From contig NC_135809.1 of assembly GCF_964213995.1 (NCBI RefSeq), forward strand, positions 103,726,001 to 103,790,000: 64,000 bases of DNA. Reading direction: 5' to 3'. The DNA comes from Mustelus asterias (Eukaryota). Positions 1-57,321 of this stretch are shown piece after piece. The notes beneath the pieces were generated by a model that worked only from the letters and a program-made list of their open reading frames with translations, had not been told where the DNA came from and made no database searches. Made by a program: the position numbers and the translations under genes. Position 1 is the stretch's first letter. Every line of letters begins with the position of its first letter.

Positions 1-741
1 TGCCCAGTGATTAGCGCACATAATGATTGGGTAAACAACCTCCCTCACACTGCCCCATAGCACATGACCTGTGTAGTTTCAAACAGTCGACTGCATCCTG
101 AGCTCTCATCTCAGACTCAGGCATTGCCCTAACCTGCACTGTAAGTCCTTGCACTTTGCTTCAACTGTGAGGGGAACTTGTCCATGTGAACTTTAACATG
201 AATCAAGAGATTAGGAGCACACCCTCGGTCAGTGTTCAATGGCCACCTTTCCAAGGACATCCTTCAACTTACCCAGCCATCCAATGGTTCTGCCGAACCG
301 TATCACCCGTTGGATTTGGAAGTCTGCATGCGAGAGATTAAATGTAGACCAGCAATCATTGGCACTCTCAGACATTAGTGCTGCTGGAGTAGGCACAATT
401 GCTTGACTGACCTGATTCCAAGTGTGTTATCTGTATTCAAGCTAAACCAAACTGCGAAAGAGTGCTCATCTCCAACATGTTTTTCCATTTGCATGGCCAT
501 TTTCTTCACCCCCTGCCCACTGTTCCCTTGGCCCAGATTCCCTTTCCTCCCTTCTCCCCTGCACTGTACTCTGTACCACAAGGAAGCTGCTGCAGACACT
601 TGCCTGTGACCACCCCTCTTAATCCGCGGATCCAGGTCCTTGAATTGGGATCCTCACGAATGCTGCAGTTATCTCTAAGTTCCCCTCAGAGTTCAGGTCA
701 TCAGGTTGTACACCTTTTACATAGTAGTGTTCTGAAACCAA

Positions 742-948
742 GTAAGAAGTGTCACAACACCAGGTTAAAGTCTAACAGGGTTATTTGGTATCACAAGCTT
801 TCGGAGTGCTGCTCCTGAGTTCACTCACCTGATGAAGGAGCAGCACTCCGAAAGCTCATGATACCATATAAACCTGTTGGACTTTAACCTGGTGTTGTGA
901 GACTTCTTACTGTGCCCATCACAGTCCAACACCGGCATCTCCACATCA
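742..948 (+). mobile_element. Short fold-back Penelope-like element (pLTR-derived) with hammerhead core
   Basis: Inverted arms 741-816 / 836-911, a unique 3' tail ending ctccacatc, and flanking 12-bp direct repeat ttctgaaaccaa (730-741, 949-960). Same family recurs at 36745 and 56067/56228. Confidence 0.85.
825..861 (+). ncRNA. Minimal type I hammerhead ribozyme motif (stem I carries one mismatch)
   Basis: tcac-CTGATGA-a-ggag(cagca)ctcc-GAAA-gc-T-C-atga: conserved CUGAUGA/GAAA/UH core with stem II. Stem I tcac/atga probably decayed from tcac/gtga. Confidence 0.7.
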
Positions 949-1532
949 TTCTGAAACCAAACCAATGTGCAGTTTAAATTTGATGTGGAGGAATGATTCC
1001 GGTGTACGGCCACTACAATGAAATGTAAATTTATTTTAATTACATTCCCGATCAGCTGTGGGAAAGACGGTCCGCCATTGATGGGGGCAGGGGACAATTG
1101 TCTCCTGCACTGACACTGCATAGGACATTGTGATGATATTTTCCAAAGGCGCCACTGAACATGCCTGCCCCGATCGGCAAATTCCAGCCTAAGGGGGGAG
1201 TGATCTTACCAAAGAAATTCTGAATGAGCATGAAAACAGGAGAGAATCTCATCCAATTTTTTAGCGCACTTTCAGACATGATCTTATGTCACCTGGCGCA
1301 AAGAAGAGGTAAAGTGTGATTCACGCCAATAGGGGGAGTGGGTGGGGTCATGTTCGCCGGAAAGCTGGCTGCTCAGAGCTAGAAGGCACCATTGCACATG
1401 TACAGATCTCTGTGTTTTGTGTAAAGTGTACATAGAAAACTGAAGATCTGTTATTCCTTGGATGTTTATCGCTGATTGTTCCAATCTTGTTACCTGAATC
1501 TTCTTTATTTGTAATGATTTTCTAACTTCTAG

Positions 1533-1635
1533 CAAAAGATTGCTAGGCCCTATCCTTGTGTGGAAATATAATTTTGTGTTGAAATGGAAGGTAGCTCAAG
1601 TGGACTTTACCTATAAGCATTTCCCAAAATTACTG
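1533..1635. repeat. Copy 1 of a local 103-bp direct duplication (copy 2 at 2791-2893)
   Basis: Ungapped manual alignment with 2791-2893 gives about 13 mismatches in 103 bp. Not recognised as a TE. Confidence 0.9.
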
Positions 1636-1724
1636 AGATAATACTTCCAAGTTGGGATCGGCAGTGTGTGGATAAAATGCCTGCATCAGCCTGAGTTTCA
1701 GCCAGGCTGAAGCTTCATTGCAGT

Positions 1725-1960
1725 TATCAGAGACTGCTGCAGTGTTAGGAATGAAATCCTTTGGGTGAGGCATTAAATTCAGTTAGGTGGATGTAAAAGA
1801 TTTGATAGCACAAAGGAGCTATCTTGGTGCCCCAGCTAACATTCCTCCCTCAAGCAATTCATTGAATTTCTGTTGGCAAGATTTTACTGGAGTATTACAG
1901 TTACACATTTGCCAAGATGGCAATAGCCATTGTATTTGAACAATGAATCACCTGAAGTAC
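1725..1960 (+). mobile_element. Degraded Deu-domain SINE (SacSINE1/AmnSINE1-like)
   Basis: Motifs cctttgggtgaggcattaaa...aggtggatgtaaaagat...ggtgccccagctaacattcctccctcaagcaa resemble the DeuSINE core as I recall it. Confidence 0.55.
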
Positions 1961-1989
1961 CTGGAATTAAAATGGTTGTTTTCTGCACC

Positions 1990-2740
1990 CATGGCCATTT
2001 TGTCCTTGCTTTGGCTGTCTACAAATAAAAAAGCTTCATTACGTACCATTCCTCACAAGCAGGTAGGTGTCTCAAAGCATTTAATGATAAAGAGAGGCAA
2101 ATATCAAGTATGGGGAGGTAGAAGAGCATCCAAGATCTGGAACTGAGCGGAAAGACTTTTGAGAAGATTTTTGAAAATATGATAGGAGGTGGTTACGAAA
2201 GCAGGCCACGTTCAAGGAGGAGATCACAAAGCCAGCGTGCGGCTAGGCCATAGAGAGATGGAAAAGTAGAGAATGATTTTAATATCAACATTCTGGGGCT
2301 CTGTGAAGCTTTTAGGGGATATGCGCATTATGCAAAGATGTTAGGCTGCAATGTTTGGATAAACTGAAGCTTCTCTGGAGACTTTGAAGCAGCAAGGTGG
2401 AGTTGCTGTAGAAGATCAGCCATGATCTTATTGAATGGTGGAGCTGTCAGTACCAAAACGCCTACTCCAGCTCCTATTTCTTATGTGGGAGGTTGGAGAA
2501 TTTAAGTGTGAAGTGATGATGGGCATAACAGTTCTGGGAGGAACCTGAACCTGAACAGGTTCGATAATCTGTCAGGTTTCCTAACTCAGCTTGAGGAGAC
2601 ATTGACCAACTCAAGGCCAGGCTTTTGAAGGTGCTGACAACAGCTCAGGTGGTTGGCCTCCATTTTGCCGACAAAGACATTTTGGCTCATGCACCTAGAA
2701 TGAGGAGAAAGCTCAGTGAAATGGCAAGGCAGAGCAGAGA
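1990..2740 (-). mobile_element. Highly decayed L2-like LINE fragments with a CR1 3' tail fragment (about 2412-2486) inside
   Basis: L2-like phrases (agagaatgattttaat; tgcaatgtttggataaactgaagctt) and CR1 tail gatcagccatgatcttattgaatgg...cctatttcttatg. Confidence 0.45.
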
Positions 2741-2790
2741 TATCTTGTTATATTGCTAGCAAATAAAGTAAACACAATGAGGAAGAAAAA

Positions 2791-2893
2791 CAAAAGATAG
2801 CTTGACCCTCTCCTTGTATGGAAATATAATTTTGTGTTGTATTGGATGGTAGCTCAAATAGACTTTATCTTTAAGCATTTCCCAAAATTATTG
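2791..2893. repeat. Copy 2 of the local 103-bp duplication
   Basis: Aligns without gaps to 1533-1635. Confidence 0.9.
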
Positions 2894-3387
2894 TCATCAT
2901 TTGTTGAATTGCAAATCCAATATTGAGCTGTCAAGGAATATTCCTCCCCCATAATTGTCTTTTTTAAAAATCAATTATCTATTGCACTAAGTTCCATCCT
3001 ACTGGATTAGAATAATTGCAACCTAAATAACATTTTAATAAATCTATAGCAAGGCTTGTATTTTATCAATCTGTTCTGCTTGAGCCTCGGGGTATATAAG
3101 ATTCCCAAAGGAACCAAGCTCATTATGTTAGCCTAGTCTAAGTATTTTAGGAGTATCCATTTTCTTAGCAGATTTGAAGAACAAATCAATTAGCTTCTCT
3201 GTGCTCAGGTAATCATGGATGTCAAATGGAAAAATCACAGAGGTATTGACGATACCCAGGCTGAGTCTGTAGTCTTATAATTAACTGGAAAATGCACACA
3301 CTTTCATCTACAGTGAAAGCACTGTCACTGAGAGGGGCCTCAGGAGTAGAAAGGTGCTGCATTTTGAAGTAATATGATGTACCCATT

Positions 3388-4025
3388 AAGCCCAGCAACT
3401 ACAGGCCAGTCAGTTTAACCTCGATATTGGGGATGCTCCTAGAAACAATAGTTTGGGACAAAGTAAAAACCACTTGGACAAATATGGGTTAATTAAGGGA
3501 AGTCAGCATGGAATAGCTAAAGGCAAATCATGTTTAACAAACTTGCTGGAGTTTTTTGATGAGGTAACAGAAAAGATTGTGAGGATAATGTTGTTGATTT
3601 AGTGTACATGGACTTCCAGAAGGCATTTGATAAGGTTCTGCACAATAGAGTTGTGGGCAAAGTTATAGCTCATGGAATAAAAGGGACAGTAGCAACATGG
3701 ATACGGAATTGGCTGAGTGACAAGAAACAAGAGTACTGGTTAATGGATGCTTTTCAGGTTGGAGGAAGGTTTATAGTGGATTTCTCCCGAAGTCAATGTT
3801 GGAAACTCTTGCTTTCCCTGTTATATATTAATGACCTTGGTATACAGGGAACAATTTCAAAACTTGCAAATGATCCGAAATTTGGAAGCATTGTGAACTG
3901 TGAGGAAGATAGTGTAGAACTTCAAAAGGACACAGACAAATTGGTAGAATGGGTGGACAAGTAGCAGGTGACATTTAATGCAGAGAATTGTGAAATGATC
4001 CATTTTGGTAGGAAGAACGTTGAGA
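3388..4025 (+). mobile_element. CR1 LINE ORF2 reverse-transcriptase fragment
   Basis: NYRPVSL and SQHG..KGKSCLTNLLEFF motifs; ORF 3602-3964 contains YMDFQKAFDKV and WIRNWLSD; frameshifted. Confidence 0.9.
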
Positions 4026-4084
4026 GTACATAAAGCATACAATTCTAAAGTGGGTGCAGGAGTAGAGGGACACGAATATACAAA

Positions 4085-12170: not shown

Positions 12171-12231
12171 GAAGTGAAATTTTGATTGTAGAAGCAAATG
12201 AATCTAATAGATGGTGTAATTGTGATGTCAG

Positions 12232-15200
12232 TGACTTTGGGATGAGGGAGGAGTTGGCTAAGGTAGACTGGGAGCAAAGATTTTATGGTAGGACAATTGA
12301 GGAACAGTGGAGGACTTTGAAAGCGATTTTTTCACACTGCTCAGCAAAAGTATATGCCAGTGAAAAGGAAGGACTGTAGGAAAAGGGATAATCAGCCATG
12401 GATATCTAAGGAAATAAAGGAGAGCATTACATTGAAAGAAAATGCATACAAAGTGGCAAAGATTAGTGGGAAACTAGAGGATTGAGAAATCTTTAAAGGT
12501 CAACAAAAAGCCACAGAAAAAGCTATAAAGAAAAGTAAGATAGATAATGAGAGTAAACGAGCTCAGAATATATGAAGATATAGCAAAAGTTTCTACAAAT
12601 ATATAAAAGAGAGTGGCTAAGGTAAATATGGTCCTTTTAGAGGATGAGAAGGGGTATTTAATAATGGGAAATGAGGAAATGGCCGAGGCATTGAACAGGT
12701 ATTTTGTGTCAGTGTTAACAATGGAAGACATAAATAACATGCCAAAAATTGATGACAAGGAGGCTATGGCAGGTGAGGAACTAGAAACAACAATTATCAC
12801 TAAAGAGATAGTATTGGGCAAGCTAATGGGGCTAAAGGTAGACAAGTCTCCTGGCCCTGATGGAATGCATCTGAGGGTATTAAAAGAGATGGTGAGGGAA
12901 ATAGCAAATGCGTTCATGGTAATTTACCAAAATTTGCTGGACTCTGCGGTGTTTCTGGCAGATTGGAAAACAGCAAATATGATGGCACTGTTTAAAAAAG
13001 GAGGTAGACAAAAGGTGGATAACTATAGGCCAGTTAGCTTAACTTCTGTAGTTGGGAAAGTGCTTGAATCTATCATCAAGGAAGAAATAGCGAGACTTTT
13101 GGATAGAAATTGTCCCATTGGGCAGACGCAGCATGGGTTCATGAAAGGCAAGTCATGTTTAACTAATTTACTGGAATTCTTTGAGGACATTACAAGCGCG
13201 ATGGACAATGGGGAACTGGTGGATGTGGTTTATCTGGATTTCCAGAAGGCATTCGATAAGGTCCTGCACAAAAGGCTGCTTCATAAGATAAAGGTGCACA
13301 GCATTACGAGTAATATACGAGCTTGGACAGAGGATTGGTTAACTAACAGAAAGCAAAGTGTGGGAATAAGTGTGGTTGGCGTTCAGTGACTAGTCGTGCG
13401 CCTCAGGGATCAGTGTTGGGACCGCAATTGTTTACAATTTTCATAGATGATTTGGAGTTGGGGACCAAGTGTAGAGTGTCAAAGTTTGCAGATGACACTA
13501 AAATGAGTGCTAGAGCAAAGTGTGCAGAGGACACTGAAAGTATGCAGAGGGATATAGACAGTTTAAGTGAGTGGGCAAGGGTCTGGCAGATGGAGTACAA
13601 TGTTGATAAGTGTGAGGTCATCTATTTTGGTAGGAATAACAGCAAAATGAACTATTATTTAAATGGTAAAAAATTGCAGCATGCTGCTGTGCAGAGGGAC
13701 CTGGGTGTCCTTATGCATGAATCACAAAAGTTGGTTTGTAGGTGCAGCAGGTAATTAAGAAGGCAAATGGAATTTTGTCATTCATTGCTAGAGGCATGGA
13801 GTTTAAAACAGGAGGTTGTGTTGCAGCTGTATAGAACATAGAAAAGCTACAGCACAAACAGGCCCTTCGGCCCACAAGTTGCGCCAAACAATTTCCTTAC
13901 CTTCTAGGCTCATCTAGAACCCTCTATCTTACTAACCTCCATGAACCTATCCAAAAGTCTCTTAAAAGACTCAATCAAATCCGCTTCCACCATCACTACC
14001 AGCAGCCGATTCCACGCACCCACCACCCTCTGAGTGAAAAACTTACCCCTAACATCTCCTCTATACCTACTCCCCAGCACCCTAAACCTGTGGCCTCTCG
14101 TGACAACCATTTCAGCCCTGGGTAAAAGCCTCTGAGAATCCACTCTATCAATACCTCTCAACATCTTATACACCTCTATCAGGTCACCTCTCATCCTTCG
14201 CCTCTCCAAGGAGAATAGACCTAGCTCTCTCAACCTATCCTCATAAGGCATACCACTTAATCCCGGCAACATCCTCGTAAATCTCCTCTGCACCCGTTCT
14301 ATGGATTCCACATCCTTTCTGTAATAAGGCGACCAGAACTGGGCACAGTACTCCAGGTGGGGTCTGACCAGGGTCCTATACAGCTGCAGCATTATCTCCC
14401 GATTTCTAAACTCAATTCCTCTATTGATGAAGGCCAGTATTCCATACGCCTTCTTAACCACAGCCTCTACCTGCGATGCCGCTTTGAGCGTCCTATGAAC
14501 CCGGACCCCAAGATCCCTCTGTTCTTCCACACTGCCAAGCGTCTTACCCTTAATATTATATTATTCCATCCTATTCGACCTGCCAAAATGAACCACCACA
14601 CACATATCTGGGTTGAAGTACATCTGCCACTTCTCCGCCCAGTCTTGCATCTTATCTATGTCTCGTTGCAACTGCTGACATCCCTCTACACTATCCACAA
14701 CATCTCCAACCTTTGTGTCATCAGCAAACTTGCCAACCCATCCTTCCACTTTCCCATCCAGGTCATTTATAAAAATCATAAAGAGCAAGGGTCCCAGAAC
14801 AGATCCCTGGGGCACCCCACTGGTGACCGACCTCCACTCTGAAAAAGACCCATCTACAACCACTCTTTGCCTTCTGTGGGCAAGCCAGTTCTGAATCCAC
14901 AAAGCAACGTCCCCTTGTATCCCATGCCCCTTCACTTTCTCCATAAGCCTTGCATGGGGCACCTTATCAAACGCCTTACTGAAATCCATATAAACCACAT
15001 CTACCACTCTTCCCCCGTCTAAGTGTCTAGTCACATCTTCAAAAAACTCAATCAGACTCGTAAGGCATGATCTGCCTCGGACAAAGCCGTGCTGGCTACT
15101 TCTGATCATACTATTCCTTTCCAAATGCTCATAAATCCTGCCTCTCAGGATCTTCTCCATCAACTTACCTACCACTGAGGTTAGACTCACCGGTCTATAA

Positions 15201-15994
15201 TTTCCTGGGCTATCTCTTCTCCCTTTCTTGAATAACGGAACCACATCCTCCATCCTCCAATCCTCCGGAACCTCTCCTGTCTCCATTGACGATGCAAAGA
15301 TCATCGCCAGAGGATCAGCAATCTCTTCCCTCGCCTCCCACAGTAACCTGGGGTACATCCCATCCGGTCCCGGCGATTTATCTAAGGTGCTGTTGAGGTG
15401 TTGTACAAGGTGCTGTTAAGGCCACACCTGGAGTACTGTGTACAGCTTTGGTCTCCTTACTTGATAAAGGATATACTGGTACTGGAGGGGGTGTAGAGGA
15501 GATTCACTAGGTTAATTCCGGAGTTGAGAGGATTGGCTTATGAGGAGGGACTGATTAGGAATAGACTGGGGCTATAGTCATTGGAATTTAGAAGAATGAG
15601 GGGGGATCTTACAGAAACATACAAAATTATGAAGGGAATAGATAAGATAGAAGCCGGGAGGTTGTTTCCACTGGCAGATGAAACTAAAACTAGGGGGCAT
15701 AGCCTCAAAATAAGGGGGAGCAGATTTAGGACTGAGTTCAGGAGGAACTTCTTCACCCAAAGGGTTGTGAAGCTGTAGAATTCCCTGTCCAGTGAGGCAG
15801 TTGAGGCTACCTCGTTGAATGTTTTTAAGGCAAAAATAGATAGATTTTTGAACTGTAAAGGAATTAAGGGTTATGGGTGAGCGGGCAGGTAAGTGGAGCT
15901 GAGTCCACGAAAAGATCACTCATGATCTTATTGAATGACAGAGCAGGCTCGAGAGGCCAGATGGCCTACTCCTGCTCCTAGTTCTTATGTTCTT
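12232..15994 (+). mobile_element. 5'-truncated CR1 LINE (outer element, split by an inverted CR1)
   Basis: ORFs 12613-13389, 13386-13754 and 15581-15778 with KSPGPDG, NYRPVSLTS, QHGFMKGKSCLTN, LDFQKAFDKV, PQGSVLGP and FADD; ends in (ttcttatg)n tail at about 15980-15994. Confidence 0.95.
13831..15383 (-). mobile_element. Young 5'-truncated CR1 LINE nested in the outer CR1
   Basis: ORFs 14561-15358 and 13910-14530 are in frame and separated by one stop; FADD motif present; (ttctatg) tail at 13831-13843. Confidence 0.95.
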
Positions 15995-22550: not shown

Positions 22551-22553
22551 TGT

Positions 22554-27836: not shown

Positions 27837-27844
27837 TTTTATTA

Positions 27845-28770: not shown

Positions 28771-29599
28771 CCATCAGCATAGCAACACAGCGATGAATTT
28801 TGGTTGATTTTCCCACCTTGGTACCGGAGAGACCAATTGTGGCAATCCCACTGCAACAGAACTAGGAAAGTCATTGGGTCTTCTGGCCAATTTGGCTCAA
28901 CTACTTGCTGTTTAAACTTACTATGCTAGTTAGTTCATGTTTCATGATTGTTTTAAAACTATTGCTACAAACCAGTAAAAGACATAAAAAAGTGTTTTAA
29001 AACACTGGTTTTGAAAATAAATGTACCACATAAAGATAAATCTACCTACCCTATCAGAGGAGGGCTGTAAATTTCTGAGTGGGTGAATTGACACCGCACA
29101 GTATTGCAGTTCTTTCTTTGACTTACTCTTCAAGCGTGACTCCCATGTGGGGGTACAGAATGGGAGAAATGGCACAACACAATGATTAATATCCTAGCAA
29201 CAATAAACATATTTCAAAGCCTTAAAAGAATGTGCAGAAACCCAAATGCAAAACACAAGCAAAAAGCAATTATATTACAAAGAGTAAAGGAGCGAGAGAT
29301 ATTGTTCCCATGTCATTCAATTTTGTTTCAAAAAGGCAAGGGTAGCTAGGAGACCTGTGAAATCTCACTCATGAGGGCTGACTCACTTTTGTTGTATAGA
29401 GGTAACAAAAAAAATAAACACAATTCTGATTTGTTTGAATAGTTTGGCAAAAGTGTTTTATCTTTTTGAGAGCCTGACTCTAGTGTCCAACATTGCTTCT
29501 ATCCCTGAGGAGGGTGGTGGGGATGATAATAAGGTGAGGTTTGAGTTGTTCACTCACTCAATCTGCTCTCAGTGCTGCTGTAGTGGGCTGTCACTCAGC

Positions 29600-29935
29600 T
29601 GCAGGGTTTTGACTTGCGCTCTGGCTGCGCTCCAGGCCGGCCGGCCGGCAGCTTTGCTGAGCCTCGGAGCGCGCCGTAGCGGCAGCGGTTCCATGGTGAA
29701 AGTTTTCTCCGAAGTGTCCCGGGGGCAGCGAGTGAGCAGAAGGGAGAGCTCCCTCCCATCCGCGGCTCACAGAGATCCAGCACCGACACAGTGTGAGTAC
29801 CCGGTACCGGCGGCCGCCCGCTGCCAGCCCGCGGCGGCTCCAGCTGCTGTTTGCGGCCAACCGTCTCCCAGCCGTTACGGCGCGAGCTCGGTTACCGTGG
29901 CAGCGGCAGGTGGGCTCGGGGAGGGAGAGGGAGCG
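29600..29935 (+). promoter_or_regulatory. CpG island / probable promoter and first exon of an unidentified host gene
   Basis: The only dense CpG cluster in a CpG-depleted window (ggccggccggccgg, gcgcgcc, gcggccgc); strong donor GTGAGT at 29793-29798. Confidence 0.75.
29693..29792 (+). CDS. Candidate first coding segment or uORF (MVKVFSEVSRGQRVSRRESSLPSAAHRDPAPTQ, phase 1)
   Basis: ATG at 29693 (ttccATGG) is open to the GTGAGT donor. I do not recognise the peptide, so this may be 5' UTR. Confidence 0.3.
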
Positions 29936-31445
29936 CTGGGCAGGGGGAGGGGGGTGATGGGCAGGATGAGGGGGGGGGGGGGTGATGGGCAGGGTGAGGG
30001 GGGAGGGGGGTGATGGGCAGGGTGAGGGGGGAGGGGGGTGATGGGCAGGATGAGGGGGGGGGTGATGGGCAGGATGGGGGGGGGGGTGATGGGCAGGATG
30101 GGGGGGGGGTGATGGGCAGGATGGGGGGGGGTGATGGGCAGGATGGGGGGGGTGATGGGCAGGATGGGGGGGGTGATGGGCAGGATGGGGGGGGGTGATG
30201 GGCAGGATGGGGGGGGTGATGGGCAGGATGGGGGGGGTGATGGGCAGGATGAGGGGGGGTGATGGGCAGGATGAGGGGGGGTGATGGGCAGGATGAGGGG
30301 GGGTGATGGGCAGGATGGGGGAGGGTGATGGGCAGGATGGGGGGGGGTGATGGGCAGGGTGAGGGGGTGATGGGCAGGGTGAGGGGGTGATGGGCAGGGT
30401 GAGGGGGTGATGGGCAGGGTGAGGGGGGTGATGGGCAGGGTGAGGGGGGTTGATGGGCAGGGTGAGGGGGGGTGTTATGGGCAGGGTGAGGGGGGGTTGA
30501 TGGGCAGGGTGAGGGGAGGTTGATGGGCAGGGTGAGGGGGGGGTTGATGGGCAGGGTGAGGGGGGGGTTGATGGGCAGGGTGAGGGGGGGGTTGATGGGC
30601 AGGGTGAGGGGGGGGTTGATGGGCAGGGTGAGGGGGGGGTTGATGGGCAGGGTGAGGGGGGGTTGATGGGCAGGGTGGGGGGGGGTTGATGGGCAGGGTG
30701 GGGGGGGGGTTGATGGGCAGGGTGCGGGGAGTTGATGGGCAGGGTGGGGGGGGTTGATGGGCAGGGTGAGGGCGGGGTTGATGGGCAGGGTGGGGGGGGT
30801 TGATGGGCAGGGTGAGGGGGGTGCTGGGCAGGGTGAGGGGGGTGCTGGGCAGGGTGAGGGGGGTGCTGGGCAGGGTGGGGGGGTGCTGGGCAGGGTGTGG
30901 TGGGGGCTGCTGGACAGGGTGAGGGGGGGGTTGCTGGTCAGGGTGAGGGGGTGGTAATGGGCAAGGTGAGGGGGTGGGGGGTGATGGGCAAGGTGAGGGG
31001 ACGATGGGCAAGGTGAGGGGACGATGGGCAAGGTGAGGGGGTTGGGGTGTGATGGGCAAGGTGAGTGGGTTGGGGTGTGATGGGCAAGGTGAGGGGGTGG
31101 GTGTGATGGGCAAGGTGAGGGGGTGGGTGTGATGGGCAAGGTGAGGGGGGTGGGGTGTGATGGGCAAGGTGAGGGGGGTGGGGTGTGATGGGCAAGGTGA
31201 GGGGGGTGGGGTGTGATGGGCAAGGTGAGGGGGTGGGTGTGATGGGCAAGGTGAGGGGGTGGGTGTGATGGGCAAGGTGAGGGGGTGGGTGTGATGGGCA
31301 AGGTGAGGGGGGTGGGGTGTGATGGGCAAGGTGAGGGGGGCGGGGTGTGATGGGCAAGGTGAGGGGGGCGGGTGGGCTGTTGGGCAGGGTGAGGGTGGTG
31401 GGTTGATGGGCATGGGGGAGGTGATGGGTGGGGTGATGGGCAAGG
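29935..31445 (+). repeat. G-rich minisatellite, about 18-28 bp units (gatgggcagggtgagGn and variants)
   Basis: Dozens of tandem units with graded variants: gggcaggatg, then gggcagggtg, then gctgggcag, then gggcaaggtgag..gtgt. Confidence 0.97.
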
Positions 31446-31725
31446 TGAGTGTCGTGGTGGAGGGGATGGGAAGTGGGGGAGGGCAGGGGGGTGGAGTTGG
31501 GGGAGAGCAGGGTAGTGAGGGGTTGTGGGAGGGCAGGGGGGTCGAGTTGGGGGACAGCAGGGTAGTGAGGGGTTGGGGCAGGGCAGGGTGAGGGTGGGGT
31601 GGATGGGAAGGTAGATAGGGGATGGGCAAAGGTTTAGGAGATTAGGAGCAAGTGGGTGGGGTGTGTGTGCGGAGGGAAGTTGAGTGTGGAGGGGGCGATT
31701 GTTTGTGGGCAGTTGGGAAAGTGGG

Positions 31726-33254
31726 TCACAAAGTCATACAGCACATAAACAGGCCCTTTGCCTCATCATTTATGCTGACCATCAAATACCAATCTCTACT
31801 AATTCCATTTACCAGCATTTGGATCATAGCTACTATGCTGTGGCAAATTAAGTGCTCGTTCAGATGCTTCTGAAATATTGCGAAAGTACCTGCCTCCAGC
31901 ACCCTCGGGCAATGCGTTCCATATTTCTAACATCCTCTTGGTGAAAAATATTTTTCCTCAGGTCCCCTCTCGACCACTTATTCCTCACTTTAAACTTTAG
32001 TCCTCTGGCCTTAGACACCTCGGGCATGGGGAAAGGATTTTTATGATCTACCCTATCTATGGCTTTCATTTTGTATCTACTTCTATCGGATCCCCCCTCA
32101 GCCTCCACTGCTCCAGGGAAAGCCAACCCAGCCTATCCAGTGTCTCCTCGTAGCTGAAACTTTCCATCCCAGGCAACATTCTGGTGAATTTCCTCTGCGC
32201 CCTCTTCAGTGCAATCACAACTTTCCAATAGTGTCGTGACCAGAACTGCACACACTATTCCATCTGTGGCCTAACCAATGTCTAATCAATGTTTTTTAAA
32301 GTTGTAACAAGACCTCCCTGCGTCTATATTCTATGTCCCGACTAATGAAGGCAAGCATTCTGTATGCCTTCTTCACCAACCTATCTACTTGTGCTGCCAC
32401 GGGCGGCACGGTAGCACAGTGGTTAGCACTGCTGCTTCACAGCTCCAGGGTCCAGGGTTCGATTCCCGGCTCGGGTCACTGTCTGTGTGGAGTTTGCACA
32501 TTCTCCTCGTGTCTGCGTGGGTTTCCTCCGGGTGCTCCGGTTTCCTCCCACAGTCCAAAGATGTGCGGGTTAGGTTGATTGGCTAGGTTAAAAAAATTGC
32601 CCCTTAGAGTCCTGGGATGCGTAGGTTAGAGGGATTAGCGGGTAAAATATGTGGGGGTAGGGCCTGGGTGGGATTGTGGTTGGTGCAGACTCGATGGGCC
32701 GAATGGCCTCCTTCTGCACTGTAGGGTTTCTATGATTCTATGATGATTCTATGCCACCTGTGGGGATCTGTGGATTTGTATACTAAGGTCCCTTTGCTTC
32801 TCAATACTCTCTAGGATCCTATCATTTACAGTGTATCTTTGACCCTTATCTGAACCTCCCAAAATGCATCACCTCACACTTATCAGGATTAAATTCCATC
32901 TGCCATTGCTCTGTCCATCTTACCAGCTGATCAATATCAATCTGCACTCTCAGACTACTCTCCTTACTATCAACAACAGCACCAATTTTTGTGTTATCTG
33001 CAAACTTATTAATTATACCTTCTACATTCCCATCCAAGTCATTAATGTATATAACAAACAGCAAGGGTCCCAGCAACAATCCTATGGTACTCCGCTGGTC
33101 ATAGGCTTCCAATCACAAAAGCATCCCTCCACCATCACTCTTTGCCTCCTACTAACAAGCCACTTTTGGATCCATTTTGCCAACTTGCCTTGGATCCCAT
33201 GGGCTCCAACCTTTTGAACCAGCTTTCCATTTGGGACCTTGCCAAAGACCTTAC
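31726..33254 (-). mobile_element. 5'-truncated CR1 LINE
   Basis: ORFs with LLGPLLFVIYINDLD..KFADNTK, QFWS and RLGWLSLEQWRLRGD; split by an HE1 SINE. Confidence 0.92.
32401..32751 (+). mobile_element. Full-length HE1 SINE (tRNA-derived V-SINE with CR1 tail)
   Basis: gggcggcacggtagcacagtgg head, GGTTCGATTCC B box, V-core tgtgtggagtttgcac...tttcctcccacagtccaaaga, (ttctatga)n tail, TSD tgccac (32395-32400, 32752-32757). Confidence 0.95.
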
Positions 33255-36238: not shown

Positions 36239-36744
36239 CACTGCCCCTGCATTAATTCATCTGCTGTTTTGAAACCCTCATCCATACGTTTGTTATCTCT
36301 AGATGACTATTTGAGTACACTTCAGATTGGTCTCCCATGTTCTATCCTCTGTCAACCTGAAGTCATTATTAAACTCGATTGGCCATGTCTTTACTCCAAG
36401 CCAAGTTCCATTCCTCTATTAGCCCTGTTCTTGCTGAGCAATATTATCTCCTGGTCAAGCAATGCCTTGATTTAAAATTCCCATCCTGGCCTCATACCTC
36501 ACTATCTCTAATTGCCTCCAACCCCACAACCTTCTGAGATATCTGCACTCATTTAGTTCTGGCCTCTTGAGCATCTCTGATTTTACTTGCTTCTCCTATT
36601 GGTAATCGTGCTCTTAGCTTCATAGCCCCTAAGCTGTAGAAATTCCTCCTCAAACCTCTCCATCTCACTACCTCTTTTTCCTCTAAGACACTTTAAAACC
36701 TATTTCTTTATCCAAGCATTGAGCCATCTGCCCTGATATCACCT

Positions 36745-37003
36745 TAAGAGTTTTAACAACACCAGGTTAAAGTCCAACAGGTTTATTTGGTAGCAAATGC
36801 CATTAGCTTTCGGAGCGCTGCTCCTTCGTCTGATGGAGTGGAAGTCATTTCCACTCGATGCTTTCCACTCCATCTGATGAAGGAGCAGCGCTCCGAAAGC
36901 TAATGGCATTTGCTACCAAATAAACCTGTTGGACTTTAACCTGGTGTTGTTAAAACTCTTACTGTGTTTACCCCAGTCCAACGCTGGCATCTCCACATCA
37001 TGA
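36745..37003 (+). mobile_element. Fold-back Penelope-like short element with hammerhead cores
   Basis: About 100-bp near-perfect inverted arms (36745-36843 / 36863-36961), unique tail ending ctccacatc, 12-bp TSD ctgatatcacct (36733-36744, 37004-37015). Confidence 0.9.
36870..36906 (+). ncRNA. Minimal type I hammerhead ribozyme, intact core
   Basis: ccat-CTGATGA-a-ggagc(agc)gctcc-GAAA-gc-T-A-atgg: stem I ccat/atgg, stem II ggagc/gctcc, predicted cleavage after A36902. Confidence 0.8.
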
Positions 37004-37619
37004 CTGATATCACCTAACATGGCTTGATGCCCATTTTGCTTCATAACACTTCTGTGAACCTCCTTGGGACAAGTTATTGCAATAACATATAAACTGTGGT
37101 GAAGGGGAGCTTCATTCAGTCAAAGCTCAATTCTGAGTAATTGTAAATAGCTGATTCAAAATCTCAATGTGCCTGGGGTTATGCCTTTTCTGCTGCCAAA
37201 CTGGTCAATGTTAGCTTATCCAACTTGGTACTTTCTGTTAGCTTACAGAGCAATGTGGAAATTCACTTATGCTCCTTGGTAGTGTAGCAGTAAAGGAAAA
37301 AGAGCTTCAGACAGTTATTGAAAAGGACTTTGAAGTGAGAACGAAATGTTGTCATGCGCTGTTCAGATATGAAATATGGGCTTTTGACTGGTATTCCAAT
37401 ATCCAGTGACTAACATTCCCGGCTGGTGAGCATTTGCTCATTGTCAGTGATTAATCTTGATATATAAAATCAGTTATTGCCTCAATTGTTCTCAAGATGA
37501 TCCTGTCCTGAACAATTAGTTACTCGGGGATAATGGACCTTACATAGACATAGCACCAGCTGGGCTATTCTCCTATGTTGCTTGGTCCTTATGTCACATA
37601 CTTTTGTTAAAATAATAAG

Positions 37620-39029: not shown

Positions 39030-40233
39030 CATAAGACATAGGAGCAGAATTAGGCTGCTTGGCCCATTGAGTCTGCTCCGCCATTCAATCATGGCTGATA
39101 TTTTTCTTATCCCCATTCTCCTACCTTTTCCCCATAACCCCTGATCCCCTTATTAATCAAGAACCTATCTACCCGGTCTTAAAGACTCAATGACCTGGCC
39201 TCCACAACCTTCTGCGGCAAAGAGTTCCACAGATTCATCACTCTCTGGCTGAAGAAATTCCTCCTCATCTCTCTTTTAAAGGATCATCCCTTTAGCCTGA
39301 GGTTGTGCCCTCTGGTTCTAGTTTTTCCTACTAGTGGAAACATCCTCTCCATGTGCACTCTATCCAGGCCTCGCAGTATCCTCTAAGTTTCAATAAGATC
39401 CCCCCTCATCCTTCTAAAGTCCAACAAGTACAGACCCAGAGTCCTCAACCATTCCTCATACAACAAGCTCTTCATTCCAGGGATCATTCTTGTGAACCTC
39501 CTCTGGACCCTTTCCAAGGCCAGCACATCCTTCCTTGGATACGGGGCCCAAAACTGCTCACAATACTCCAAATGGGGTCTGACCAGAGCCTTATACAGCC
39601 TCAGAAGTACATCCCTGATCTTGTATTCTAGCCCTCTCGACATGAATGCTAACATTGCTTTTGTCTTCCTAACTGCTGACTGGACCTGCACGTTAGCCTG
39701 AAGAGAATCTTGAACAAGGAAGGACTCGCTAGTTCCTTTGCGCTTCTGATTCTCTAAGCATTTCCCATTTAGAAAATAGTCTATGCCTCCATTCCTCCTT
39801 CCAAAGTGCATAACCTCACACTTTTCCACATTGTATTCCATCTGCCACTACTTTGCCCACTCTCCTAACCTGTCCAAGTCCTTCTGCAGCCCCCCTGCTT
39901 CCTCAATACTACCTGTCCTATATATCTGCAAACTTGGCAACAGTGCCTTCGGTTCCTTCTTCCAAATCGTTAATGTGTATTGTGAAAAGTTGTAGTCCCA
40001 GCATCGACCCCTAAGGCACACCACTAGTCACTGGCTGCCATCCTGAAAAAGTCACTGGCTGCCATCCTGAAAAAGACCCCTTTATCCCCACTCTCTGCCT
40101 CCTGCCAGTCAGCCAACCCTCTATCCATGCCAGGATCTTACCCTTAACACCATGGGCTCTTAATTTATTTAACAGTCTCCTATACGGCACCTTGTTAAAA
40201 GCCTTTTGGAAATCTAAATAAATCACGTCCACT
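39030..40233 (-). mobile_element. 5'-truncated CR1 LINE (same subfamily as 57322-60206)
   Basis: ORFs with DVIYLDFQKAFNKVP and MEYNVEKCEVMHFG...LVRPHLEYC; tail cataagacatagg; internal 24-bp tandem duplication at 40026-40073. Confidence 0.95.
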
Positions 40234-40639
40234 AGTGCTGGAGGCTCGTTATTTGTCTCCATTGACATTGTGGCAACCAGGATCACAGTGTGCAGGATTT
40301 TCATTTCCACTATTTTAACCCTTTGCCTAATTTTTTCTTGACTGTTGCGATTAGAGATTGGAAGGAGAAGGGTTTTAATCAAGACTATAGTTTCAGTGCT
40401 AAGAAATATTTTAAATTTGAAGAGAACATTTCAAATTGTAAGGAATGTTGAAAATTGTGCCATTTTGGTCTTTGTACTTCTGGACAAATCAATAATGAAA
40501 ATTTATCCTATTGAAGATGATTACCATTCATTTCCACGTTGCTGTTCTCTGGATTCCATTATATAACTGGATTATCAGGTGTGCGTATTGGATTTGCTTA
40601 TTAGTGCCCATGATTCATACAATAATTAAAGCTGACATA

Positions 40640-43130: not shown

Positions 43131-43134
43131 CACT

Positions 43135-46860: not shown

Positions 46861-47228
46861 ATCTTACTTTTCTATTAGTAACCATTTTGTGTTGCTTATC
46901 TACAATTTAATTTATTTCTGATGGAAATCTTGCGTATTCAAACTAAATTGATGAATCTAGTCAACAGCCTACACGCAATTCAATGTAAATTGATTCTGTT
47001 ATACAAGCTTTTTAATTTTGCAATATATATCTAATTACCGTAAATTACTGTAGAAACAATAGGTTAAAGGTTGTGTAAAATAAGTTATTAAAACAAAGGG
47101 GATTAAGTAATGATCTTACCGAGTTTCAATCTATAAGATGATTTAAAGCAATTTAGGTTGTGCAAATTTCATTTTACTTTTCAGGCCCTTTCATCCCACT
47201 TGTAAATTTTTATTAAAAAAGTGCAGAG

Positions 47229-47592
47229 TCATAGAAACCCTACAGTACAGAAAGAGGCCATTTGGCCCATCAAGTCTGCACCAACCACAATCCCACCCAG
47301 GTCCTACCCCCATATCGTTACATATTTACCCGCTAATCCCTCTAACCTACGCATCTCAGGACACTAAGGGGCAATTTTAGTATGGCCAATCAACCTAACC
47401 CACACATCTTTGGACTGTGGGAGGAAACTGGAGCACCCGGAGGAAACCCACGCAGACACGAGGAGAATATGCAAACTCCACACAGACAGTGGCCCAAGCC
47501 GGGAATCGAACCCAGGTCCCTGGAGCTGTGAAGCAGCAGTGCTAACCACTGTGCTACCGTGCCATCCCAACCACTGTACTACCGTGCCGCCC
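47229..47592 (-). mobile_element. Full-length HE1 SINE with tandemly duplicated 5' end
   Basis: Near-identical to 32401-32751 in reverse; aaccactgtgctaccgtgcc occurs twice (about 47544 and 47569). Confidence 0.95.
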
Positions 47593-51987: not shown

Positions 51988-52330
51988 GGGCGGCACGGTA
52001 GCACAGTGGTTAGCACTGCTGCTTCACAGCTCCAGGGACCTGGGTTCGATTCCTGGCTTGGGTCACTGTCTGTGTGGAGTTTGCACGTTCTTCTCGTGTC
52101 TGCGTGGGTTTCCTCCAGGTGCTCCGGTTTCCTCCCACAGTCCAAAGATGTGCGGGTTAGGTTGATTGGCCATGCTAAAATTGCCCCTTAGTGTCCTGAG
52201 ATGCGTAGGTTACAGGGATTAGCGGGTAAATGTGTAGGGATATGGGAGTAGGGCCTGGGTGGGATTGTGGTTGGTGCAGACTCGATGGGCCGAATGGCCT
52301 GTTTCTGCACTGTAGGGTTTCTATGTTTCT
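51988..52330 (+). mobile_element. Full-length HE1 SINE inserted in the CR1 endonuclease region
   Basis: Same sequence as 32401; short TSD aaat (51984-51987, 52331-52334). Confidence 0.95.
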
Positions 52331-52344
52331 AAATCTGCAGGGAG

Positions 52345-52760
52345 ATGGTGGCTAGTGGTGATGTCACTGGACTATAGAAGTTTAAGTGTGGATCTGAATC
52401 CATCCTTAAGATGATTTAACGACACTGGTTGGGGTAAATGGAGAAAAATTATTTCCTATGGTGCCTAGTGCAGAACAAGGAAGTCCACCTTAAAATTAGG
52501 GTTAGACTATCCAGGAATGATCTTAGGAAACAGAAAGGATAGTCATTCATGTATGGGGGTATGCAGGCTAATGCTCTGTGGGACACGGGTTCAAATCCCA
52601 CCATGGCAGCTGGGGGAATTTAAATTAAATGAATAAAATCTGGAATTGAAAGCTAGCCTCAGTAATAGTGACCATGAAACTATCATCAATTGTGGTAAAA
52701 AAACAATGTGGTTCACTAATGCTCCTTTCGGGAAGGAAATCTGCCATCCTTACATGGTGT
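52345..52760 (+). mobile_element. tRNA-derived SINE whose head is interrupted by a 190-bp local copy
   Basis: ggtggctagtggtgatgtcactggacta, then insert 52373-52559, then caggctaatgctctg..gggttcaaatccc. Confidence 0.8.
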
Positions 52761-52859
52761 TTCCACGTACCCATCTCTCTTGTCCTTTTGTGTGGTAGAG
52801 GTTGGGGGTTTACAAGATGCTGTTGAAGAAGCCCTGCCTTTCTTTCTATTATTCTTTCA

Positions 52860-53545
52860 CAGGATCTGGGCATTTACTGGCTGGACTGACTTTTTTTTTA
52901 CTGCCCATGCCTAATTTTCCTTGAGAAGGTGTGGTGAGCTGCCTTTTTGAACCGCTACAGACCATGTGGTGTAGATATACCCACAATGCGGTTAGGGAGG
53001 GAATTGCAGGACTTTTACCAAGCGACAGTAGAGGCATGGCAATATAATTCCAAGTCAGGATGGTGTGTGCCTTGGAGGGGAACTTGCAGTTGGTGTTTCC
53101 ATGCATCTGCTGCCCTTGACCCAGGTGGCAGTGGTTGCAGGTTTGAAAGATATTGTCTAAGAAGCCTTGGTGAATTGCTGCAGCACATCTTGTTGATGGT
53201 GCACACTGCTGTCACTGTGCATCAGCGGCAATCATCAGCGTCACCCTACTTCTGACTTTTAGGAGGGAAGGTGAAGCAGTTGAAGATGGTTGGGCCTGGG
53301 GCATTACTCTGAGCAACTCCTGCAGTTATGCTGTGGGATTAAGATGATTGACCTCCAACAACTACTGCTATCTTCTTTTATCCTAGATAAAAGTAGTGGA
53401 GAGTTTTCCCACTGATTCTCATTGACTCCAGTTTTGCTAGGCCTCCTCAATGCCACAATCAGTCACTTGCTGCCTTGATGTCAAGGGCAGTCACTCTCTC
53501 CTCACCTCTGGAATTCAGTTCTTTTGTCCATATTTGAACCAAGGC
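52860..53545 (-). mobile_element. YKAQVR-family LINE 3' fragments
   Basis: ORFs with CKFPSKAHTILTWNYI and CSNSPRLLRQYLSNLQPLPP; shared tail. A further fragment lies at about 55040-55525. Confidence 0.8.
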
Positions 53546-53569
53546 TGTAATGAGGTCGGGAGTGATGTC

Positions 53570-54975
53570 AATAGCTTTTGGACTTTTATTTTTCTTTCCA
53601 GTCTTCCATGAATTCACAAATCTCATCGTTCCAATCCTCTTGGTGTTTTATGTGGTCTTTTACGAACTGTCCACTTGCCTGGACTTTTGCTGCTGTCTCC
53701 TGTGTCTCAGCACTGACAATACTTGCGATTTGGTGTCAAGAGTTGACCCTTCCAGATCACCTTGTGGTCTGTTTTTCTGCTAAATTTTTATTTGGCAATT
53801 CTGCAGGCCCTTTGTTGCCTCTGTAGCGCCCATTACTGAGGCAGATACATCAGTATTTTAACTTGAATCAGTTCTTTTCTCAACTGGATCACAGATGGGC
53901 AAGGAAGTTTTAATCACAGGAACAACTTTGGAATTGTGATACCCCATCCCAAGTAGTGGCAAAACTATAATACCTGCTATGTCATTGCCAAACATAAAGT
54001 CTACATTTTCAATAGGTAATTTCAGAATGACTCCGACCACACAAGGTCCCTTCACGAGAGCACAATTTAAATTTACTTTATGCAACAGAAAAGGCACACA
54101 TTAATACATTCTGATTCAGTAAGCTGTCTGAAAAAAAGGTCCAAATCCTTTGCTAACAATAAGCTCTGAGCTGAACCAGTATCTCTCAGGATAACAATTT
54201 TCCTGGGCTCTTTCTTGGACAAAAATTGAATAATTTTTCATTCAGATACTAACCCCTTATAACCATTTGCATCTGTATAGATTCCCAACGTAAAAAAAAA
54301 TTAGATGCAGTGGGTTTCTTACAATCTTCAACTTTTAGTGCAGATTTCCCTGTGGAAATTCTTATCACTTTGCATCATGCGACTGATTTAACACTGATTT
54401 CTTGAAGACCTTTCCTGAACACATCTTAAAACGTTCCTGTTACTGCTGCCAGTTTATCGTTCAGCTTCCAATAATTGGCTTGGAGATATCCCGTCTTATG
54501 GCAAAAAAAATGTCTTGGTTACGTTACATCACTTTTGTCTCTACGCTACCATTTTAATGACTGGACCAGCACCTGCCCTCTCCCTAAAGCTAGACTCTTG
54601 TGCCAGCTTTCCTATGCATTTATAAATGCCCCCTACTGTCCCCCAGCTGCCTTTGTGATATATCATATTCTTCTGTTTGTGATCAAGTCAACTGGTCCCA
54701 CCACATTCGTTTCTCCCTAGCAAATTCTGCAAATGTTTCATTTGGACTTTTCTTTAAAGCCTAGAAATTTCAAATGAGATGCTTCAGGGACAAGCTTGTA
54801 AACATTAATTGCCGCAGTTTTAACCACGTCATTATCTGAGGATTGTTCTGCCAAAAGGCTAGAGTACACATCTGAAGCCATCCCAACTTAAGCATCTTGC
54901 AAAATGAGAGTTCAAATGTCCTTTGCCACTTTAGTTTGTTGTTAACTTTTCAAACAAGATGAAATATCACTCAAT
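53570..54975 (-). mobile_element. Gypsy LTR retrotransposon gag/protease remnant
   Basis: Manual translation DVYSSLLAEQSSDNDVVKTAAINVYKLVPEA (gag YELVPEAYR motif); ORF 53858-54097 LHKVNL..ALVKG..VVGV..KLPI.NVDFMFGNDIAG (ILGNDLAG protease end). Confidence 0.75.
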
Positions 54976-55529
54976 GTGAGAGTACCTGCCTTCACCACAC
55001 TCTCAGGCAGCGCATTCCATTTTTCCACTGCCAACTCCCAGCCTGCTGCAGCCGTGGTGCCTTCGTGGTGGGGGAGGTAAATGTTTAAAGTGGTGGGCGG
55101 ATGGCTTGCCTATCGAGCAGGGCTGCTTTTTCCTGGATTCGAGATCCTCAAGTGTTTTTGGAGTTGCACTGATTCAAGCTCCTAACATGTGTTTTGTAGA
55201 TGGTGGATGAGCTTTGTGAATCCGGAGGTGAGTTACTTGCCACAGAATTCCCTGCTTTGGTAGCCACAGTATTTATGTGGCTGTCCTGTTACTTTTCTGA
55301 TTAATGGTCACTCCCAGGGTGGAGGATTCAGTGATGATAATGCCCTTGTGTTAAGGGGACACGGATAGATTCTCTCTTGCTGGAGATATTCATTACCTGA
55401 TATTTTTGTGGAACAAATGTCAGCCCAAACCCAAATGTTGTCCAGTTCTTACTGCTTGTGGACACAGATTACTTCATGATTTGAGGAGTTGCAAATGAAA
55501 CTGGATACTATGCAATGACCAGTGGATAT

Positions 55530-56053
55530 AGGGGCATAAAGCACAGGGGTTGGACATAAGCCCCTTGAACCAACTCTGCCATTCATTGAGATCATGGCTG
55601 ATCTTATTGTGGTCCTCATTCACTGCCTGCCCCCATAACCCCTGACTACCTTGCAGATCAATAATCTGTCTAGCTCAGCCTTGAATATATTCAATGATCC
55701 AGCCTTCACTGCTCTCTGGAGAACTTCATAGGTTCACAACTGTCAGAGAGAAGAAATTCCTCCTCATCTCTGACTTAAATGGGATATCCTATATTCTGAA
55801 ACTGTGCCTACTATTTCTAGATTCCACCGTGAGGGTGATACGTCCTCCCAGCATCTGGCCTGTCAAACACCTTCAGAAATTTATATGTTTCAAGAAGATC
55901 ACCTCTCATTCTTCTAACTCCAATCGGTATAAGCCCAACTTGCCTACATGTACAAGTGAACCTTCTCTGAAATGCCTCTAATAATGTCCCTCCTTAAGTA
56001 AGGAGATCAAAACTGTATGAAAATTCTAGGTATGGTCTCAACAATGCCCTGTA
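55530..56053 (-). mobile_element. CR1 3' fragment (host of the double Penelope insertion)
   Basis: ccattcattgagatcatggctgatc tail and aagaaattcctcctcatctc; resumes briefly after 56420. Confidence 0.8.
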
Positions 56054-56066
56054 CAGTTCTAACAAC

Positions 56067-56219
56067 GATGTGGAGATGCTGGCGTTGGACTGGGGTAAAC
56101 ACAGTAAGAAGTTTAACAACACCAGGTTAAAGTCCAACAGGTTTATTTGGTAGCAAAAGTGGCTCTTGCTACCAAATAAACCTATTGGACTTTAACCTGG
56201 TGTTGTTAAACTTCTTACC
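56067..56219 (-). mobile_element. Fold-back Penelope-like short element lacking the hammerhead
   Basis: Arms 56104-56156 / 56166-56218; tail on the left (gatgtggagatgctggcg...); 13-bp TSD cagttctaacaac (56054-56066, 56220-56232). Confidence 0.88.
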
Positions 56220-56265
56220 CAGTTCTAACAACACCAGGTTAAAGTCCAACAGGTTTATTTAATAG

Positions 56266-56300
56266 CACAAGCTTTCGGAGCATGCTCCTTCATCAGGTGA
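56266..56300 (-). ncRNA. Minimal hammerhead motif (minus strand)
   Basis: Reverse complement reads tcac-CTGATGA-a-ggagc(at)gctcc-GAAA-gc-T-T-gtg; stem I cac/gtg. Confidence 0.7.
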
Positions 56301-56333
56301 CCTGATGAAGGAGCAGCGCTCCGAAAGCTCGTG
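56300..56333 (+). ncRNA. Minimal hammerhead motif (plus strand; stem I shortened by the fold-back junction)
   Basis: ac-CTGATGA-a-ggagc(agc)gctcc-GAAA-gc-T-C-gtg. Confidence 0.65.
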
Positions 56334-57321
56334 CTACCAAATAAACCTGTTGGACTTTAACCTGGTGTTGTGAGACTTCTTACTGTGCCTACCTCAGTCC
56401 AATGCCGGCTTCTCCACATCAGTTCTATCAAGGCTTTCCAACTATTTTTGGGAGTGTGTCTTCAGTATATAGAGCTTTATGACTTGCATTTGGAGCAAAC
56501 AAATTGCCCTGTATTTATGAATTTCTTATTCTCAATTAAAGAAATGTTATCTACTTCAACCCAACCCTATTGTCTCTACATACTTTGTTTAGGAGGCCAA
56601 AAACAGAAAATGTGCAAATTAGCCCTAACAAAGCTAATTGAGTGGTTGATCTTTTATGTGACTTTGTTTACCATGAAGATGAATAGGATTAGAAAGTTAA
56701 ATACTGGGTTTGCCTGAGAGTTTTTAAAAAGGCAGCTGTACTGTATTACAATAACAACTTTGTTAATGCTGATGTCTCCAATCTAGTGCATTAATAGTAC
56801 CATATTTTCTGTAACACTATAGATTTATAAAGCTGCACAGAAAGCTGTGAACTATAAAACGCTTGAATATTGTGATATATATCGGTAATACAATACTATT
56901 ATTTAAAATAAAGGATTTAGGTTTCTATTTTCAAGAAGGAATTAGATATAGCTCTTGAGGCTAAAGGGATCAAGGGATATTGGGGAAGGCAGGATCAGGC
57001 TATTGAATTTGACAATCAGCCATGATAATGAAAGGCGGCGTAGGCTCGAAGGCCCAAATAGCTTACTCCTGCTTCTATTTTCTGTTTTTATTCTTCCTAG
57101 TTAGAAAACCTAGTTAGAACAAGTTAGTAAATGGCCAGGTCATTCAAAGAAAAATGGAGAAAGAAAATGTCTCTCCAAAGGATAATATTTAACTTTAAGA
57201 CTAGAACTCAATATGAATTACTTATCAAATTGTCAACGTCTGTTGTCTGTGTAAGAAAGCTGCCTAAGTCCCACAGGACCATAGGCTGTTCTCTCCCTTT
57301 TCAGAGAGAGAGCTGACTGGT

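Follow-up and report, generated by a model that had tools for sequence, protein, structure and literature searches.

What are the small hairpin-like insertions in a 64,000-bp stretch of the Mustelus asterias genome (contig NC_135809.1, positions 103,726,001–103,790,000; hereafter the window), why do some of them carry hammerhead ribozyme motifs, and how did they arise? A first-pass annotation had described four fold-back insertions of 150–260 bp and interpreted them as a family of ribozyme-bearing retro-insertions derived from Penelope. The four insertions (E1–E4) stand at the coordinates given below; they are homologous to one another (BLAST E values of 1e-63 to 1e-13), and all share a layout of inverted arms plus an unpaired, one-sided tail between target-site duplications (TSDs). 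The TSDs of E1, E2, and E3 measure 12, 12, and 13 bp; for E4, a 12-bp duplication containing one mismatch is a better reading than 8 bp. We conclude, with little doubt, that the four are truncated fold-back ends of a Penelope-like element (PLE). Neither a fifth copy nor any coding remnant of the element is present in the 64-kb window.

730–741 (left) and 949–960 (right): TSD of E1, 12 bp.
742–948, plus strand: E1, fold-back PLE end of the short-stem subfamily.
~742–815, ~817–948, and ~911–948, plus strand: tail-less inverted arm, tailed arm, and tail of E1, respectively; the tail stops at the start codon of the open reading frame (ORF).
36733–36744 (left) and 37004–37015 (right): TSD of E2, 12 bp, within a full TG-N16-CA target.
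36745–37003, plus strand: E2, fold-back PLE end of the long-stem, TATA-less subfamily.
36745–36961 and 36962–37003, plus strand: paired arms and tail of E2, respectively; the tail takes in the first four ORF bases.
56054–56066 (left) and 56220–56232 (second copy): TSD of E3, 13 bp.
56067–56219, minus strand: E3, long-stem fold-back PLE end, inserted in reverse orientation.
56067–56103 and 56104–56218, minus strand: tail and arms of E3, respectively; the apex lies directly 3' of the hammerhead cut site.
56220–56231 and 56420–56431: TSD of E4, 12 bp, one mismatch.
56232–56419, plus strand: E4, fold-back PLE end of the short-stem subfamily; arms to ~56375, tail ~56384–56419.

The Penelope origin was decided by the rest of the genome (3.68 Gb searched; L-numbers denote loci fetched from it). 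The tail had 60,142 exact genomic matches, or 87,065 when CpG-type degeneracy was allowed; the reversed controls had none, so the sharing of the tail is not due to chance. A search for the GIY-YIG family returned eight loci, and at one of them (L037), which carried the Pfam match, an endonuclease ORF was followed ~210 nt further on, on the same strand, by a hammerhead and arm of the window type. The end of this ORF had 93,136 candidate matches, and the 150 of them that were scored were 99–100% identical; the parent PLE of the window elements was amplified recently. From 20 fetched loci, a unit of ~3.0 kb was reconstructed, consisting of an ATG, a reverse transcriptase (RT), a Cys linker, a GIY-YIG endonuclease, a stop codon, a pseudo-long terminal repeat (pLTR) of ~340 nt containing the hammerhead, the tail, and the next ATG, which directly follows the tail. 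Locus L072 has the arrangement pLTR-ORF-pLTR with a 462-bp direct repeat, and L070 is a 2953-bp tandem. The L072 ORF (883 aa) matched RVT_1 (E value of 4e-10) and contains DKG at residue 288, YIDD at 524, and VVY..YIG at 782; a Pfam scan of the whole 883-aa protein gave no GIY-YIG match. Its closest protein relatives were shark proteins (81–94% identity). Two of the three E1/E4-type hammerhead copies checked extended into the endonuclease C-terminus.

Thus the shared arm, hammerhead, and tail sit 3' of a GIY-YIG ORF and 5' of an RT ORF, and the autonomous partner that the first-pass annotation had proposed to seek through the tail was found, the element end being linked to its ORF in cis. Like endonuclease-bearing (EN+) PLEs, it has a single ORF with RT and, at its C-terminus, a GIY-YIG domain, as well as a pLTR visible in tandem and partial-tandem copies, and its copies show 5' truncation, an adjoining inverted copy, a one-sided tail of 30–40 bp, and a TSD. 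The linker CHSNLCKTC at residue 745 (CX4CxxC) lies between RT and endonuclease, where a CX2-5CxxC linker marks Neptune/Nematis (PMC8557442). The partner would therefore be a Neptune-type PLE, a clade assignment read from this motif.

The small elements are not a separate family. Tails were taken in position order from the first 4.5 Mb of one contig, and 106 remained after de-duplication and a 500-nt flank filter: 70 were fold-back, 30 simple (a few of these being missed fold-backs), and 6 long and cut off. The 62 complete fold-backs (three mis-parsed rows excluded) measured 76–1040 bp, 42 of them no more than 300 bp, and coding copies with the identical layout and a TSD reached 5.3 kb. Among the first 100 youngest-type hammerheads listed, 74 fell into 37 head-to-head pairs separated by 43 bp to 4.8 kb, and in all 37 pairs both arms had the same stem II variant by an eye count. 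The exact apex of E4 occurred at 14 genomic sites, compared with 9,650 matches to its hammerhead type, and a second exact apex was found five times; a clonal family, with an apex repeated hundreds of times at unrelated sites, was rejected on these counts. Apices recur independently, because the E4-apex copies differ in alleles and subfamily background and in tail side (right in eight, left in three, unclear in three). With lengths spread over 76–1040 bp, near-unique apices, and one end formed by an unpaired tail, the elements are retro-insertions rather than miniature inverted-repeat transposable elements (MITEs), as had been proposed, but the idea of a tiny family of its own does not survive the size continuum and the mostly unique apices.

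Several loci deserve separate mention. Two copies at 9.10 and 9.75 Mb of G000:C22 (L009/L251 and L017/L252) share an apex and arm-discordant variants and have different flanks, possibly reflecting rare secondary copying of a whole hairpin. At L164 (G000:C1:3935200-3937250), a 33-nt tail adjoins an inverted segment from the start of the ORF in place of the pLTR arm, with an 11-bp TSD, which suggests a second priming site or a template jump downstream of the ATG. Loci L031–L034, L036, and L038 belong to a second PLE family, now decayed, that has remnants of RT and differs in its Cys-linker/GIY-YIG sequence; at L031, an end of the family studied here is inserted beside the decayed PLE. L035 looks like a third family.

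How the insertions were made is first recorded in their targets. A dyad TG-N16-CA centred on the TSD (TG-NN-[12]-NN-CA) was present at 52 of 104 sites, compared with a control mean of 2.8 and a maximum of 8; where the TSD was 12 bp long (39 sites), the four dyad positions held T, G, C, and A in 33, 35, 32, and 30 cases, respectively. The dyad was a property of the long-stem elements (47/64) and not of the short-stem ones (2/27; p = 4e-9). Repeat-borne insertion hot spots were also seen: separate insertions of differing lengths stood at one position of a host repeat bearing TG-N16-CA (L016, L061, and L154; also L089 and L110). E3 and E4, which belong to different subfamilies, occupy one triplicated target (56054–56431), as follows from reading the E4 TSD as 12 bp. 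The 13-bp TSD of E3 sits in TG-N17-CA, the CA of which comes from the left arm of E4 at its host junction; because this CA derives from E4, the arrangement suggests that E3 was the second to insert. The apex of E2 (~36848–36858) contains a small duplicated piece of arm, which suggests that the template was switched once more while the arms were being joined.

The arms provide the second record. Whereas the outer end of the tailed arm is the start codon, that of the tail-less arm lay at −31 to −39 in 45 of 62 copies, ~36 nt upstream. Loose ends fall at both of these positions in contigs from runs of other organisms; these contig-type runs served for presence and loose ends only and cannot show transcript starts. 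For an Anolis PLE studied in vitro, two such ends are RT start sites, and both target strands are cut and extended (PMC11167929). At the junctions with the target, microhomology of ≥2 nt was found in 52% of 31 and 53% of 30 cases (the two junctions, respectively), compared with ~18% expected, and untemplated bases in 4/35 and 5/35. Across 69 copies, the tail-less arm reached further 5' in 22, the tailed arm in 19, and neither by more than 10 nt in 28. Twenty long young copies were examined, of which four were not simple two-arm structures; in the remaining ~99%-identical copies, the tail-less arm reached further 5' in 12 of 16, the tailed arm in 3, and neither in 1. In those 12, the tail-less arm extended 23–2062 nt beyond the tailed arm, and the arms mostly abutted within a few bases. 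A tail-less arm that reaches further 5' can therefore be neither copy nor template of the tailed arm. Same-subfamily alleles were found in both arms in 54/57 cases, compared with 21.9 after shuffling, and three further tests gave 36/40 versus 14.1, 33/41 versus 20.9, and 54/59 versus 35.1; time stratification or conversion could also yield such sharing.

On balance, we favour twin priming by a dimeric RT-endonuclease as the origin of these copies. In this model, the dimer would place symmetric nicks in the two strands, two bases 5' of CA, so that 3' overhangs of 12 nt remain. From each 3'-OH, a separate cDNA would then be primed on element RNA, at the start codon in one case and ~36 nt upstream in the other; both cDNAs would stop early and be joined head to head, giving a dead-on-arrival, 5'-truncated pLTR end.

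Why so many copies are short is a separate step, and the weakest. The hammerhead cut site lies at −99 from the ATG, and the end hazard per 10 nt was 0.13–0.20 at −120 to −149, 0.06 in the cut-site bin, and ~0.02 beyond −200. Of 139 arms with a core, 59 stopped within 34 nt on its upstream side, a further 17 within the following ~55 nt, and the other 63 past that. The mode of the arm ends, 6 nt upstream of the core, coincides with the A of an initiator (Inr)-like CCACTC; in the references for the short-stem and youngest subfamilies, a TATA-like motif precedes this A by 29–30 nt. Ends at 5–9 nt were found for 1/54 in the TATA-less E2-type subfamily versus 9/31 (post hoc p = 4e-4; a few subfamily labels in this comparison are wrong). 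On a transcript starting at the Inr-like A, RT primed in the 5' tail copy would run off at ~135 and ~100 nt, and the two run-offs would add up to an insertion of ~235 bp; 14 of the 62 complete copies measured 229–256 bp. The 150–300-bp class would come about through cDNAs that often end 0–35 nt 5' of the core, most likely at a transcript 5' end set by a TATA/Inr-like pLTR promoter. That run-off from this putative pLTR start sets the short class has, in our estimation, slightly less than an even chance. A 3' splice site preceding the hammerhead, of the kind present in D. virilis, was also considered but found no support: the AG is not seen in the short-stem references, and no spliced junction was noticed.

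Several observations count against this account. Near-symmetric apices were in excess (28/69 compared with 6.6 expected for independent arms), a result that snap-back of a single cDNA would give as well. A later one-sided deletion in the palindrome could mimic non-nested arms. A fifth arm-allele test (14/23 versus 10.1) was not above the shuffle, and of the locus-private variants, only 4 were common to both arms, compared with 95 in one arm, which does not establish one template molecule. The short-stem subfamily, including E1 and E4, lacks the dyad target, and its 27 sites gave no clear consensus. As for the promoter, the mode of the arm ends comprised 6 of 139 arms within a broad pile-up, and in the youngest subfamily 39/54 arms ran ≥90 nt further, with little pile-up. 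The full reading, in which a dimer cuts TG-N16-CA leaving a 3' stagger of 12 nt, one RNA is primed from both ends at sites ~36 nt apart, the tens of thousands of hairpins are 5'-leader run-offs of a pLTR-initiated transcript, and target specificity is gained or lost between subfamilies, is offered as tentative and has somewhat less than an even chance.

The strongest competitor is snap-back or self-priming, in which one cDNA folds and copies itself or an antisense template primes itself (PMC3846280), with arm asymmetry put down to jumps between templates or to a subsequent deletion in the centre of the palindrome. Besides the near-symmetric apices, it is consistent with the alleles common to both arms (a median of 0.5 differences between arms versus 3 between loci) and with arms that are shorter in older subfamilies than in the youngest, as erosion would give. 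The non-nested arms of the 12 young long copies count against it unless later deletion is common, as do the microhomology at both target junctions, the dyad symmetry of the target, and the copies without an inverted arm, which likewise end 5' of the hammerhead. We consider it unlikely.

The remaining two explanations give the hammerhead a role, and for these the motifs themselves matter. As the first-pass annotation had stated, three of the four elements contain a minimal type I core (starts +829, +36874, and +56302, plus −56296), and its predicted cleavage position, A36902, was correctly placed.

825–861, plus strand: E1 hammerhead; core 829–835, GAAA 850–853, cut predicted after 857; stem I mismatched at its first pair.
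36870–36906, plus strand: E2 hammerhead; 4-bp stem I and 5-bp stem II intact, predicted cut after A36902.
56298–56334, plus strand: E4 plus-arm hammerhead; core 56302–56308, predicted cut after 56330; stem I of 2 bp.
56265–56300, minus strand: E4 minus-arm hammerhead; core from 56296, one-base loop II deletion; stem I of 3 bp.

The E2 right arm is the only window hammerhead with both stems intact, its left-arm core having a U4A change; the two E4 cores are antisense to each other, and E3 is coreless because its apex falls just 3' of the cut site. In an Rfam scan, the 12 matches at E ≤ 5 were all to chance hairpin families and none to a hammerhead, so the call relies on pattern, covariation, and literature. 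Among 167 cores matched by pattern (CUGANGA, GAAA, and UH), stem I had ≥3 bp in 159 and stem II ≥4 bp in 163, and stem I covaries across subfamilies (TCAC/GTG with CCAT/ATGG); judged from these sequences, the hammerhead is under selection in the parent pLTR. The palindromic A-GC-U helix III agrees with a minimal type I motif, as had been claimed, and the accompanying claim of action only as a dimer would hold by analogy with the minimal PLE hammerheads, the monomers of which are inactive and the dimers weak (PMC4209133). By folding prediction, read-through RNA of the fold-backs collapses into a hairpin (−122 to −197 kcal/mol) in which the stem II probability is at most 6e-14, and a double-hammerhead fold reaches −19.1 kcal/mol versus −29.1 for the best dimer. 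The proposal that the insertions are functional ribozyme carriers thus finds no support, with two cores on opposite strands, buried in the hairpin, and arm ends that are not enriched at the cut site; on these models, the hammerheads in the window hairpins are probably silent.

A ribozyme that sets the short class, through run-off of RT at a hammerhead-cleaved 5' end or stalling on the folded motif, is improbable. E3 and a few others do end directly 3' of the cut site, and the end hazard rises there from ~0.01–0.02 to ~0.06 at −80 to −99. The cut site was nevertheless rejected as the main truncation point, as 146 of 174 arm ends pass it and the peak lies beyond the core, to its 5' side; moreover, uncleaved RNA is the main substrate of the Anolis element, with no RNA-seq ends at the site (PMC11167929). 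The hammerhead would be a passenger of the pLTR without a causal role in mobility.

Least probable is a non-autonomous family, retrozyme- or MITE-like, that propagates itself and uses its hammerheads to process its own RNA: the small hairpins are the majority class, their cores covary between subfamilies, and the two copies 0.64 Mb apart share an apex and arm-discordant variants despite different flanks, but exact apices recur only 5 and 14 times against 9,650 hammerhead matches (the 14 differing in alleles and tail side), sizes run on to 5.3 kb, the cores are antisense and sequestered, E3 is coreless, stem I of E1 is broken, and selection on the parent pLTR accounts for the covariation.

Much of what was observed is already known for PLEs, namely the inverted truncated copy, the tail, the TSD, the pLTR promoter motifs, and minimal hammerheads (including PMC8969392). 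The EN+ PLEs of Neptune/Nematis (PMC8557442; PMC3846280) share with the present family the single RT and GIY-YIG ORF, the CX2-5CxxC linker, the pLTR and partial tandems, the inverted 5'-truncated copy, the one-sided 30–40-bp tail, the TSD, and TATA/Inr-like pLTR motifs. The shark family differs in the length of its TSD (~12 bp versus 8–10 bp in rotifer examples), in having at least 87,065 tails with the fold-back as the majority form, in a TG-N16-CA dyad rather than AT-rich or microsatellite targets, and in non-nested arms, which the published self-priming idea does not simply explain. The minimal hammerheads of metazoan PLE pLTRs (PMC4209133) likewise have a type I core, an extra base before stem II, a palindromic 15.2–16.2 pair, a short stem I, and dispersed single motifs from truncated PLEs, and in Schistosoma dual hammerheads lie 100–700 bp apart on opposite strands. 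Here, stem II has 5–6 bp and the motif is known from sequence; that work, in its accessible part, names no shark genome. In Poseidon of Anolis carolinensis (PMC11167929), two internal RT start sites similarly delimit the tail, cutting and extension take place on both strands, a dimer is predicted, and the hammerhead is dispensable for insertion. Poseidon belongs to another clade, with starts 111–118 nt inside the ORF and a preference for AT-rich ATT targets instead of the start codon and TG/CA dyad seen here, and the accessible part of that work does not derive a two-primer origin of the inverted copy. Animal non-LTR retrozymes (bioRxiv 10.64898/2026.07.22.740005) are also small, non-coding, related to PLE pLTRs, and equipped with type I hammerheads, but they form head-to-tail tandem arrays of same-strand ribozymes, whereas the window elements are single head-to-head palindromes with no head-to-tail same-strand units; a retrozyme identity was therefore rejected.

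In LINE-1 twin priming, likewise, cDNA is primed from both strands of the target and the outcome is an inversion; the second primer lies far upstream and the pieces do not overlap, whereas here the two starts are ~36 nt apart and the same sequence is duplicated as a palindrome. Neither a dyad target nor a two-primer origin for PLEs was found in the literature searched on twin priming, target consensus, structure, and shark PLEs, nor was the subfamily switch in target or the non-nested arms; that literature excluded subscription papers, Repbase reports, and supplements.

The window has other features. A CpG-rich island at ~29500–29900 (GC of 0.66–0.73, CpG observed/expected up to 0.68) may be a promoter or first exon, and is followed at 29900–31600 by a 1.7-kb G-rich tandem array of 23–28-nt units with strong GC skew. 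An inverted pair of 339 nt (47225–47563 and 51992–52330; 94% complementary, 4.4 kb apart) has further copies in the window, including 32401–32739, suggesting an ordinary SINE-like repeat. Many decayed LINE RT fragments, which we take to be CR1/L2-like, occur on both strands at 12600–15900, 39200–40400, and 57500–61700.

As a class, the element is ordinary; its value is mechanistic and concerns the origin of PLE head-to-head copies with a one-sided tail. The family provides recent insertions by the tens of thousands and coding copies that are nearly identical, and it yields a sharp prediction on nick geometry. Tens of thousands of near-perfect hairpins are likely to attract false microRNA, MITE, or ribozyme-gene calls and, when transcribed, likely form double-stranded RNA. 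Priming of one RNA at two sites, if true, would explain the tail, the TSD, and the inverted copy together.

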